Source of the DNA: a virus
IMG/VR virus record: IMGVR_UViG_3300030333_002885
Span: 11,598 to 75,597 of that record
Reading direction: 5' to 3' (one strand)
DNA: 64,000 bases
The notes under the pieces were generated by a model that was given only the letters and a program-made list of their open reading frames with translations, was not told where the DNA came from and made no database searches. This document shows, piece by piece, positions 11,293 through 12,882 of this stretch. Positions within the stretch are counted from its first letter, which is position 1; every line of letters begins with the position of its first letter. The translations under genes were made by a program, and so were the position numbers.

Positions 11293-12056
11293 CAAAGATC
11301 CTTGTTACTGGTCATAAGGGATTCATAGGCAGTTATGTCTTCAATCACCTTAGACATGATGCAGGTTATGGATACCTAGTTGATGGTATGGATTTCCCCG
11401 ATGATGTCGGGGATTTTCAGTCTGAGATTAGTATGTTTGAAAAACCATATGATTATGTCATACATCTCGCAGCATTTGCTAACATCAGAGGCAGTTTAGA
11501 TAACCCAGATGTATTCTGGGAGAATAATGTAGAGAAGTCTAAACCTATCTTTGAATATTGTAGGAGATATAATGTCAGACTACTCTATGCTAGTTCAGCA
11601 CAGGTAGAGGAGTGGTGGCAGAATCCTTATGGTATTACCAAGAAGGTTAATGAACTACAAGCACCACCTAATAGTGTAGGAATGAGGTTCCAGACTGTTT
11701 ATGGTGAGAACAGTAGGTCTGATATGTTATTCAGAATGCTACAGGATAAGACTGCTAAGTATATTACTAATCATAAGAGAGACTGGATCCATGTTAAGGA
11801 TGTTGCTAGAGCAATTTGTTACCTAATGTCTAGTACATATACTGGACACATAGATGTAGGAACAGGTGAGACTATAACAGTCAGAGAATTAGCAGAAGCA
11901 TTTGGTCAGGCAAATCTACCAGTCAAGGAGAACACACCAGGTGAGAGAGATGTCACATGTGCTGACACTACTGCCTTGCGTGAACTCGGTTGGTTTCCAA
12001 GGGAAAAAGTTTTAGACTGTATTCCTGAGGGAAAACCGAACTCTCGTTTCAAATAA
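11289..12056 (+). CDS. NAD-dependent nucleotide-sugar epimerase/dehydratase
   Basis: LVTGHKGFIG, HLAA, YASS, PYGITK, RDWIHV.D. Confidence 0.9.
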   Translation: MTKILVTGHKGFIGSYVFNHLRHDAGYGYLVDGMDFPDDVGDFQSEISMFEKPYDYVIHLAAFANIRGSLDNPDVFWENNVEKSKPIFEYCRRYNVRLLYASSAQVEEWWQNPYGITKKVNELQAPPNSVGMRFQTVYGENSRSDMLFRMLQDKTAKYITNHKRDWIHVKDVARAICYLMSSTYTGHIDVGTGETITVRELAEAFGQANLPVKENTPGERDVTCADTTALRELGWFPREKVLDCIPEGKPNSRFK

Positions 12057-12062
12057 TCGGGA

Positions 12063-12084
12063 AAAAAAATTCGGGAATTTTTTT
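12063..12084. repeat. Perfect A/T-tract inverted repeat AAAAAAATTC-GG-GAATTTTTTT
   Basis: Read directly; just after the epimerase stop. Confidence 0.7.
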
Positions 12085-12104
12085 GAGCCACAGGATTTCA
12101 AAAA

Positions 12105-12120
12105 TGTAACAGTTGTTACA
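12105..12120. promoter_or_regulatory. NtcA-box-like palindrome TGTAACAGTTGTTACA
   Basis: Exact GTA-N8-TAC with 7-bp perfect arms; extended -10 TGtTATAAT at 12145-12153. Confidence 0.65.
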
Positions 12121-12159
12121 GTTCTGGTCTTATACATAGTAATGTGTTATAATGCACAT

Positions 12160-12207
12160 ATCGTTCAGTCCCAACAGGGACCGCAAGTAAGCCGACTCGG
12201 AACGGGT
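12160..12207 (+). ncRNA. Glutamine riboswitch-like aptamer 1 (glnA/Downstream-peptide class)
   Basis: P1 CGTTC/GAACG, P2 GTCCC-AACA-GGGAC, linker CGCAAGTAAGCCGAC; begins about 7 nt after TATAAT. Confidence 0.7.
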
Positions 12208-12208
12208 T

Positions 12209-12395
12209 ATCGTTCATCCCATGTTTCATCTAGCAGCAATAGCAGCAACCTTTTCTTGCATCGATGCTCAAATGTTGATCGATAAGATCAATGAGTTTAA
12301 GATTGAAGAGGAAACACGAGCTGAGATGATCAGCGTAGTGTTAGACGAAACACCTCATTGTGAGTGGGACGCAAAAGCCGACTGAAGGAACGGGT
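12209..12395 (+). ncRNA. Glutamine riboswitch-like aptamer 2 with a ~145-nt coding insertion in the P2 loop
   Basis: 5' half ATCGTTCATCCC and 3' half GGGACGCAAAAGCCGACTGAAGGAACGG both mirror aptamer 1. Confidence 0.6.
12221..12385 (+). CDS. 54-aa ORF nested in aptamer 2 (MFHLAAIAATFSC...HCEWDAKAD)
   Basis: Hand-translated ATG..TGA; below the ORF-track cutoff; hydrophobic N-terminus, two Cys. Confidence 0.65.
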   Translation: MFHLAAIAATFSCIDAQMLIDKINEFKIEEETRAEMISVVLDETPHCEWDAKAD

Positions 12396-12423
12396 CTAAT
12401 CCACCCTACCTAAGGTAACCAAA

Positions 12424-12567
12424 ATGGCAAAAGTCACTTATCGTGGTGTCGAGTACGACACTGAAGAGTACAACGCAAAAATTCTCGATGAGAATGCAAG
12501 GCGTAACAGACACGATCTAATGTATCGTGGACTCAAGGTAAAAAGTGCTGCAATTCCTTGCAGTTAA
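12424..12567 (+). CDS. DUF4278-type YRG peptide, 47 aa
   Basis: MAKVTYRGVEY...LMYRGLK; this family is typically found downstream of glutamine riboswitches. Confidence 0.8.
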   Translation: MAKVTYRGVEYDTEEYNAKILDENARRNRHDLMYRGLKVKSAAIPCS

Positions 12568-12590
12568 ACTAGCAAAACCTGTGCATAGTA

Positions 12591-12619
12591 AAAGGAGGGG
12601 TAGACACCCCTCTTTTTTT
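12591..12619 (+). terminator. Intrinsic terminator
   Basis: GAGGGGT-AGAC-ACCCCTC followed by a T run. Confidence 0.85.
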
Positions 12620-12648
12620 ATACTATAATATCCAAAACGGAGGATCTT

Positions 12649-12882
12649 ATGTTACACATGCGAGAACAACTCCTTAGAGCAGTATTAGCACATGCTCAAG
12701 GTGAAATTGCTAAACATAGAGCAAATGTGGAAGTTTATCTAGAACATCCTGCAGGTATCGGAGAGCATTCAGATATTACTGAAGCAATTCAAGTTGAACT
12801 TGATAAGATTGCTAGGTATGATGATCAAGTTGAAGTTATAAACAAATATTTTAGATCACCAAAAGAAACTTTAAATGGTTAA
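12649..12882 (+). CDS. Cyanophage hypothetical protein
   Basis: NVEVYL..PAGIGEHSDI; GGAGG RBS. Confidence 0.8.
   Translation: MLHMREQLLRAVLAHAQGEIAKHRANVEVYLEHPAGIGEHSDITEAIQVELDKIARYDDQVEVINKYFRSPKETLNG

Follow-up and report, generated by a model that had tools for sequence, protein, structure and literature searches.

A small phage gene occupies the hairpin loop of a predicted glutamine riboswitch aptamer in T4-like cyanophages

Type 1 glutamine riboswitches (glnA RNAs; Rfam family RF01739) have been described in tandem arrangement and in association with genes of the DUF4278 family (PMC2864571, PMC6212724). DUF4278 marks IF17, an inactivating factor of glutamine synthetase, and in the leader of the Synechocystis gifB (IF17) gene the binding of glutamine to a type 1 switch is reported to enhance IF17 synthesis (PMC6212724). 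Phage-encoded glutamine riboswitches are also known, in cyanophages and in other marine phages (PMC9964418, PMC9004378). Riboswitch aptamers are usually seen as compact non-coding domains that stand ahead of the genes they control. Here we describe a 64,000-nucleotide stretch of DNA from a T4-like cyanophage (IMG/VR record IMGVR_UViG_3300030333_002885, positions 11,598 to 75,597; referred to as the window herein), in which two predicted glutamine aptamers lie in tandem ahead of a DUF4278/IF17-like gene and the second, aptamer 2, is built around a gene of its own. Aptamer 2 is a normal glnA-type aptamer except that a complete protein gene forms the loop of its variable hairpin (P2, used here for the first internal hairpin of the Rfam model). 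The elements concerned, in window coordinates, are:

12160..12208, + strand: aptamer 1, a compact glutamine (glnA-type) aptamer, matched by RF01739 and by a profile hidden Markov model (HMM)
12209..12220, + strand: 5' half of aptamer 2, with the P1 5' strand CGTTC at 12211-12215 and the hairpin 5' arm TCCC at 12217-12220
12221..12385, + strand: nested gene of 54 codons, phrog_504, 'T4-like GC 430', which fills the hairpin loop of aptamer 2
12365..12395, + strand: 3' half of aptamer 2, with the hairpin 3' arm TGGGA at 12365-12369, the core CGCAAAAGCCGACTGAAG and the P1 3' strand GAACG at 12388-12392
12424..12567, + strand: downstream gene of 47 codons with two YRG motifs, DUF4278/IF17-like, the presumed regulated gene

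An earlier note on this DNA had proposed two tandem glutamine aptamers, the second split by a nested open reading frame (ORF), ahead of a YRG gene, and direct reading recovered all of these elements base for base where the note had placed them. Like a type 1 riboswitch, the locus has the P1 strands CGUUC/GAACG, the hairpin arms, the core and a DUF4278/IF17-like gene on the 3' side; it differs in that the hairpin loop is a 54-codon gene with its start and stop in the aptamer, a split form that the Rfam model misses. The type 2 riboswitch of marine picocyanobacteria (Downstream-peptide, RF01704) shares conserved core letters and a downstream YRG peptide gene with the window, but is closed by a pseudoknot, is found in host genomes and has no gene inside. 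Genes within structured RNAs are familiar from group I and II introns, which carry homing-endonuclease or maturase genes in their loops. HEARO RNAs likewise contain an ORF (Weinberg 2010 supplement). As in the present case, a conserved fold surrounds a protein gene and copies exist with and without that gene, but introns and HEARO RNAs are mobile or catalytic RNAs whose ORF serves mobility, whereas here a metabolite sensor holds a small-protein ORF that starts and stops within the sensor. In leader-peptide attenuators and translated upstream ORFs of riboswitch leaders, the ribosome on a short ORF sets the RNA structure, as it would here. The peptide of such attenuators is usually a mere ribosome track, whereas the protein described here belongs to a conserved three-helix family that also occurs free-standing, and its translation would compete with the ligand-binding domain itself. 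No description of a gene inside a riboswitch aptamer was found among the portions of the literature covered by our search. In the original glnA alignment, metagenomic sequences carry a split second aptamer in their unaligned 3' flank, and the part of the alignment file examined holds no annotation notes (PMC2864571). The gene-in-aptamer layout is a variant of a known riboswitch class that is widespread and is missed by standard scans.

Aptamer 1 has the compact form of the class, with a P1 helix between CGTTC (12162-12166) and GAACG (12200-12204) and the hairpin GTCCC-AACA-GGGAC (12168-12181; arms 12168-12172 and 12177-12181). At the Rfam gathering cut-offs no match was reported in the entire window. 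In a permissive scan, aptamer 1 matched RF01739 over model positions 1-53 of 53 (33.9 bits, E = 1.5e-5), and the first aptamers of relatives, at the equivalent position, scored 25.8-35.9 bits with the same model. A profile-HMM scan of the whole window gave aptamer 1 30.9 bits. RF01704 also matched it weakly (24.3 bits in the window); the highest RF01704 score among relatives was 33.1 bits, against a cut-off of 33, in phage P-RSM6. The earlier note had further suggested that the 5' arm of aptamer 1 could pair with the distal GGGAC, and this suggestion found no support. In a set of 61 unique compact first aptamers, covariation links this arm to its own 3' arm (TCCC/GGGA, TCTC/GAGA, TCCA/TGGA, ACCT/AGGT, TCAG/CTGA and others), and only 37 of the 61 could pair the distal arm fully. 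As a separate observation, four IMG/VR loci (L079, L112, L126 and L141) carry an insert of 60-300 nt between aptamers 1 and 2, which in three of the four holds a small ORF ending ...IRRWKKSL.

Aptamer 2 follows aptamer 1 after a 6-nt linker. Its 5' half reads CGTTCATCCC (12211-12220) and its 3' half TGGGACGCAAAAGCCGACTGAAGGAACG (12365-12392), with ~145 nt between the two. CGUUC (12211-12215) pairs with GAACG (12388-12392) to form P1, which is invariant in 21/21 aligned phages and so carries no covariation signal, and UCCCA (12217-12221) pairs with UGGGA (12365-12369) to form the internal hairpin, for which the family consensus is uCccc / gggGa. This two-half pattern was found once in the window and in 0/100 shuffles. 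In the native sequence, split aptamer 2 was reported neither by the Rfam gathering scan nor by the permissive scan, probably because its 145-nt loop exceeds what the model allows; of the two aptamers put forward in the earlier note, the Rfam models thus returned aptamer 1, below the cut-off, and left the split one unreported.

Three lines of evidence indicate that the split copy, as judged from its sequence, is an aptamer. First, related phages carry compact second aptamers that score 37.8 bits (AG-345-P14, L001), 35.4 bits (P-TIM68, L002) and 33.3 bits (S-PM2, L004) with RF01739, those in L001 and L002 exceeding the Rfam cut-off, and their 3' halves (…ACGCAAATG..GACTGAAGGAACGG) are of the same type as that of the window. 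Second, we deleted the loop and scored the joined halves with a profile HMM, not a covariance model, built from 22 compact aptamers of other phages. Loop-deleted aptamer 2 reached 32.9 bits (E = 1.7e-10), alongside 31.3 bits for aptamer 1, while the native split form gave only two partial matches of 13.7 and 5.6 bits and the best of 200 shuffles gave 2.0 bits. RNAfold did not form the consensus hairpin in the loop-deleted construct, but with a loop of just 2 nt this outcome carries no information. Third, relatives among RNA-library contigs, drawn from four marine runs, join 12205/12208 to 12366/12368 through 18-22 other letters (e.g. CGTTCATCTCCTATTGGA). In those relatives a short hairpin of 18-22 nt stands at the exact site of the gene. 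Together with the scores above, these observations bear out the tandem pair of glutamine aptamers that had been proposed.

The insert itself is a protein gene. The nested ATG (12221) directly follows the hairpin 5' arm of aptamer 2, and the ORF ends ...TGG GAC GCA AAA GCC GAC TGA (W D A K A D) with its stop, 12383-12385, within the aptamer core; direct reading thus agrees with the earlier note that the last codons are the aptamer 3' strand. The nested protein matches phrog_504 (E = 5.7e-11; residues 6-52 on profile positions 5-52 of 53), is labelled 'T4-like GC 430' in GenBank notes and was found by tblastn in 86 phage records, while Pfam gave no match for it. Pairwise diversity of the insert at the three codon positions is 0.47, 0.30 and 0.58. 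The median ratio of nonsynonymous to synonymous substitution rates (dN/dS) is 0.37 in frame versus 0.69 and 1.91 in the shifted frames, and the value of 0.37 is an upper estimate because synonymous sites are near saturation. In a 50-sequence alignment of the protein, C13 and C47 are invariant, and from this alignment AlphaFold2 predicts three helices (residues 3-10, 13-25 and 30-43) with a mean predicted local distance difference test (pLDDT) score of 81.5 and low confidence for the aptamer-encoded tail. A Foldseek search of the three-helix model against the PDB returned nothing at E <=0.001, only generic helical bundles, and a search of the ESM Atlas with the nested protein returned only viral hypothetical clusters. 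RNAalifold detected no consensus RNA structure in the ORF interior of 43 diverse members. A free-standing homologue in Marine virus AG-345-E15 (L012:486-671) has other small genes as neighbours, is not flanked by aptamer halves and ends ...CELNEGSEITG, not ...C.WDAxD. Taken with the low confidence of the modelled tail, the missing tail of this homologue suggests that WDAKAD is there because the RNA demands it and not because the protein needs it.

Twenty named Kyanoviridae genomes, drawn from many genera, and at least 120 IMG/VR contigs have the split layout. In the 20 named genomes and the window, the nested gene lies between CGTTCATCC(C/T), at the end of which ATG begins, and TGGGACGCA..GACT(G/A)AAGGAACGG. 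These 21 phages were found by similarity to the ORF protein or to the DNA and not through the CGTTCAT motif, which is invariant in 21/21; as the 5' half was absent from the protein query, its presence beside the nested gene is unbiased. In all of these IMG/VR contigs the frame stays open from the ATG up to a stop ending 18 or 21 nt beyond the point where the TGG begins, and the ATG-to-TGG spacing falls into eight length classes from 135 to 156 nt, all multiples of three. A second IMG/VR scan, with a pattern that left the hairpin arms unconstrained, gave 143 matches. Every one of these has complementary arms, with CCC, CCU or CUC opposite GGG, and an ATG-to-TGG spacing in one frame, and in 142/143 the ORF is open to the core stop. 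Among 137 unique units, 89 have UGA and 48 have UAA as the core stop, and none has a sense codon there. The claims of a conserved protein gene as the loop of aptamer 2, and of a frame conserved in homologues, are thus upheld.

Related phages include both compact and gene-bearing forms of aptamer 2. A scan of one genome per prokaryote species yielded 7 matches, of which three were true units and four were chance matches (three with non-complementary arms, three with a broken frame, none with a first aptamer or a YRG gene). The true units (L174, L175 and L177) stand on marine contigs of metagenome-assembled genomes labelled Verrucomicrobiales, Euryarchaeota TMED129 and unclassified bacterium; these contigs are likely to be mis-binned cyanophage DNA, and the same scan gave no true unit in any cyanobacterial genome. 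Within the collections searched, the layout is confined to phage DNA.

A YRG ORF lies 3' of the split aptamer in 114 of the 120 IMG/VR units listed, and five of the other six, which lack a YRG call, have a flank too short to judge. The YRG gene mostly starts 38-47 nt after the nested stop in these units, and in the window it starts 38 nt past it. The downstream gene of the window matches PF14105 (DUF4278) with 24.0 bits (E = 4.9e-5; profile positions 27-55 of 57), which is 1.3 bits short of the Pfam gathering cut-off of 25.3 bits, and phrog_5049 with E = 3.1e-21, in agreement with the YRG gene of the earlier note.

We then considered whether the hairpin helix closes across the gene. In the 21 aligned phages, the enclosing helix consists of U-A, C-G, C/U-G, C/U-G and A-U pairs kept by invariance and wobble, and 93.7% of its cells are paired versus 31-60% in slid controls. 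In the 143 matches the non-coding 5' arm varies only from C to U and still pairs with GGG. For the window-type helix this amounts to consistency, not covariation. In 46 units, the predicted probability of helix closure has a median of 0.92 for the native sequence versus 0.36 when the interior is codon-shuffled, and 40/46 natives exceed their own codon-shuffled control (Wilcoxon p = 1.8e-9), the sequences being related and not independent trials. In these folding models, the coding sequence seems to be adapted to the fold.

A sister case speaks more directly to closure. In some phages aptamer 1 encloses a gene as well, the ~66-codon phrog_6471 ('T4-like GC 936'). This arrangement occurs in Syn19, Syn2, S-8S55, Sf-CH11 and AG-345-L05, and in 30/145 of the IMG/VR contigs fetched, at the following loci:

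L009:249-487: sister-case locus (Syn19)
L010:248-475: sister-case locus
L016:259-487: sister-case locus
L022:240-472: sister-case locus
the 30 IMG/VR loci

In the sister helix 94% of cells are paired versus 26-49% in slid controls, and its covariation score was reached by 0/500 shuffles. At the third pair (9-254), 20 sequences have C-G, 12 have U-A and none is unpaired. The 3' arm contains the stop codon, whose identity (UAA, UGA or UAG) shows covariation with that of the non-coding 5' arm (UCUU, UCUC or UCCU), and the three bases that precede the stop pair with the AUG (A-U in 31/31, G-C or G-U in 32/32). Covariation in these aligned sequences thus indicates that the helix closes across the gene in the sister case. 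An hhalign comparison of phrog_504 with phrog_6471 (probability 40%, E = 3e-4) aligns both Cys, and the two nested proteins may be distant paralogues.

The geometry of the locus leads us to propose that the fold of aptamer 2 and the translation of the nested gene compete. Immediately 5' of the nested AUG, ten bases make up the P1 5' strand and hairpin 5' arm of aptamer 2. At the other end of the gene, its last six sense codons together with the stop provide the 3' arm and core, and the UCCCA/UGGGA helix, whose last base pair joins the A of the AUG to T12365, spans the 165-nt gene. A folded, glutamine-bound aptamer 2 would hide the initiation region of the nested gene, and a ribosome on the nested gene would melt the enclosing helix and the aptamer core. 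From this arrangement we infer both that the split aptamer binds glutamine and that its fold and nested translation are mutually exclusive on one mRNA, because the 30S subunit needs the region single-stranded and an elongating or terminating ribosome melts the core. If the locus behaves like the Synechocystis type 1 switch, high glutamine would promote both the fold and DUF4278 translation, and low glutamine would leave the nested gene accessible to ribosomes; the direction of control is the weakest step of the mechanism. A ribosome could load first, since the 3' half of aptamer 2 is made ~150 nt after the 5' half, and aptamer 1 might gate the nested start through a GAACG/CGUUC hairpin. We favour, with moderate confidence, the reading that aptamer 2 encloses the gene and that fold and nested translation compete, glutamine favouring the DUF4278 gene. 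A bolder version, which we put forward tentatively, is a two-output nitrogen toggle in which low glutamine gives the phrog_504 protein and high glutamine the IF17-like gene, with the sensor erased by each ribosome and a coding sequence that has co-evolved with the fold. Since the stop lies inside the ligand-binding core, each passing ribosome would erase the sensor, which would have to refold and resample glutamine. The interpretation in the earlier note is on the whole partly supported; its control scheme, in which translation of the nested ORF and ligand binding by aptamer 2 would oppose each other, is a prediction from the geometry.

Several observations weigh against competition between fold and nested translation. 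Aptamer 1 misses the Rfam cut-off (35 bits) by 1.1 bits, and glutamine binding and in-cell folding of the split aptamer rest on sequence and geometry. The earlier note had looked to TCCC/GGGA covariation together with ORF conservation, and of these the second stood, in frame and in dN/dS, while the first did not: the window-type helix shows no compensatory change in the 21 phages, only invariance and C-to-U wobble, and its 3' arm, which encodes Trp-Asp, is under a coding constraint as well. Pairing of the second and third AUG bases is poor in the window (U-G, then G-A), and all three start-codon bases pair in only 40/143 units. The closure probability of the window itself, 0.52 versus 0.36 for its shuffles, is equalled by 6/20 shuffles and is not significant. 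The compared sequences share ancestry, and their counts cannot be taken as independent events. RNA-library contigs, for their part, may include DNA and cannot show transcript ends. Finally, a nearest-neighbour energy model prefers another pairing of the four identical P1 strands.

This other pairing is the alternative that survives best, and we consider it possible but doubtful. The P1 5' strand of aptamer 1 would pair with the P1 3' strand of aptamer 2, giving a four-way junction with interlocked cores, and the two middle P1 strands would form a small hairpin before the nested AUG, as the ligand-free or the working state. As the four P1 strands are identical, either pairing is possible, and the usual linker between the middle strands is 3-4 nt (GAG or GAGC). 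In 31 units the outer helix has a median predicted probability of 0.96, the inner hairpin one of 0.85 and the canonical P1 helices one of ~0; in the window the outer helix and inner hairpin reach 0.89 and 0.63, and the centroid fold agrees. These predictions come from an energy model that takes no account of the ligand and tertiary contacts by which the known aptamer fold is stabilised, and sequence comparison cannot decide between tandem and swapped strands because the P1 strands never vary. The four units with a 60-300-nt insert between the middle strands indicate, however, that a short hairpin is not obligatory, and the swap is a property of any tandem glnA pair, independent of the nested gene. 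Swapping the strands leaves the gene enclosed, so the conclusion on enclosure is unchanged and the gene would still compete with folding.

It is also conceivable, though in our view unlikely, that the nested gene is a passenger: the hairpin loop would tolerate inserts and a small phage gene would share the promoter with no selected regulatory coupling. In that case the aptamer would fold after the ribosomes have left, or translation of the gene would proceed regardless. The coexistence of compact and gene-bearing aptamers in related phages, the L012 homologue outside any aptamer, the tight gene packing of phage genomes and the lack of covariation in the window's aptamer type would all fit a passenger. 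Against it, the AUG lies 0-3 bases after the 5' arm in both ORF families, and the stop lies -4 to +10 nt from the start of the 3' arm or core in 29/30 aptamer-1 units and in all aptamer-2 units. Start and stop are so near the arms that almost no untranslated spacer remains. A tolerated insert would also not account for start and stop codons that join the helix, with a stop that covaries with the arm in the sister case, or for the greater predicted helix closure of native than of codon-shuffled coding sequences. Whichever trait was under selection, translation of the gene requires the ribosome to melt the aptamer core.

A further alternative keeps aptamer 1 as the sole sensor, and we regard it as improbable. 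Under it, the 5' half of aptamer 2 would be no more than the initiation region of the nested gene, switched by aptamer 1 through the GAACG/CGUUC hairpin, and the 3' half would serve as coding sequence and as leader of the DUF4278 gene. Beside the AUG, the 3' strand of aptamer 1 can indeed pair with the 5' half of aptamer 2, and early ribosome loading is possible, the 3' half being made ~150 nt later. However, a full core is kept in the 3' half and is of the type found in compact second aptamers scoring above the Rfam cut-off, the conserved core includes bases past the stop that code for nothing, and variants of the 5' arm are limited to C-to-U changes that keep the pairing with GGG. The L012 homologue lives without the WDAxD tail, which again points to a tail imposed by the RNA. 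That the 145-nt insert is a non-coding RNA domain with an incidental open frame, to which the better folding of the window RNA than of its shuffles (z = -2.87) might point, is already contradicted by a frame open in 142/143 units with spacing always in frame and dN/dS lowest in the ORF frame, by an interior without conserved RNA structure, and by two invariant Cys and a confident three-helix model.

The carriers of this layout belong to an abundant ocean virus group. If folding and translation compete as we favour, the locus would be a natural case in which a metabolite makes a single RNA choose between two protein outputs, and its coding sequence would have been shaped by an RNA fold that spans it. 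As covariance-model scans miss split aptamers, riboswitch censuses of phages and metagenomes undercount them.

The stretch is the leader of a small, self-contained phage unit made up of an NtcA-type box, a promoter, two glutamine aptamers, the DUF4278/IF17-like gene and a terminator. Its remaining signals, as read from the letters, are:

12106..12119, + strand: putative NtcA-type box GTA-N8-TAC, upstream of the promoter
12125..12153, + strand: promoter-like site of TGGTCT, a 17-nt spacer and the extended -10 TGTTATAAT
12411..12416, + strand: Shine-Dalgarno-like TAAGGT for the downstream gene
12595..12619, + strand: terminator-like hairpin GAGGGGT-AGAC-ACCCCTC, then seven T

An NtcA-type box was found 38-47 nt upstream of aptamer 1 in 69/147 unique related units, and within 120 nt upstream (<=120 nt) in 82/147 units versus 6 of the control windows. 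In the window the box lies upstream of the -35-like hexamer and so is not at the classical -41.5 position. The extended -10 (12145-12153) predicts a transcript start at ~12159-12161, and a TGTGTTAnnAT motif occupies the equivalent position in related units; the consensus scan did not list the promoter-like site because its first hexamer is weak. Where the window has TAAGGT, relatives have AGGAG or GGAG. The terminator stem was listed by the scan for the - strand only. With a putative NtcA-type box and predicted glutamine sensors before a relative of a glutamine-synthetase inhibitor, the unit would tie phage gene expression to the nitrogen state of the host. Among the RNA-library contigs, an exact 183-nt contig spans 12144-12323 and a 216-nt contig with 12 differences extends from the nested ORF into the DUF4278 gene. 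These are compatible with a single transcript, which contigs cannot prove, as transcript ends, strand and level are not readable from them. The four runs gave no cover at 11900-12116 and 12489-12643, from which we draw no inference.

DNA relatives of the riboswitch stretch are all Kyanoviridae or marine viral single-cell amplicons, and neighbouring genes in the window include a ThyX-type gene, a PhoH-type gene and an NAD-dependent epimerase. A strong promoter-like site at 12601-12629 (TAGACA, 17-nt spacer, TATAAT; 11/12 matches) shares sequence with the terminator of the riboswitch unit and stands ahead of the next small gene (12649-12882, phrog_1811). An extra expression-platform hairpin between aptamer 2 and the Shine-Dalgarno sequence was observed in L009, L018, L020, L022 and L023, with covarying stems (CCUCC/GGAGA, CCAGC/GCUGA, CCACC/GGUGA, ACCC/GGGU) and GAAA, UUCG or UUAC loops; the window is without it. 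In the manA alignment of Weinberg 2010, phage record NC_006884.1 has an aptamer-1-type nested gene flanking a manA RNA. In P-RSM6 (L006:872-1057), a manA RNA (RF01745, 188 bits) lies ~200 nt downstream of the riboswitch unit, before a transaldolase gene.

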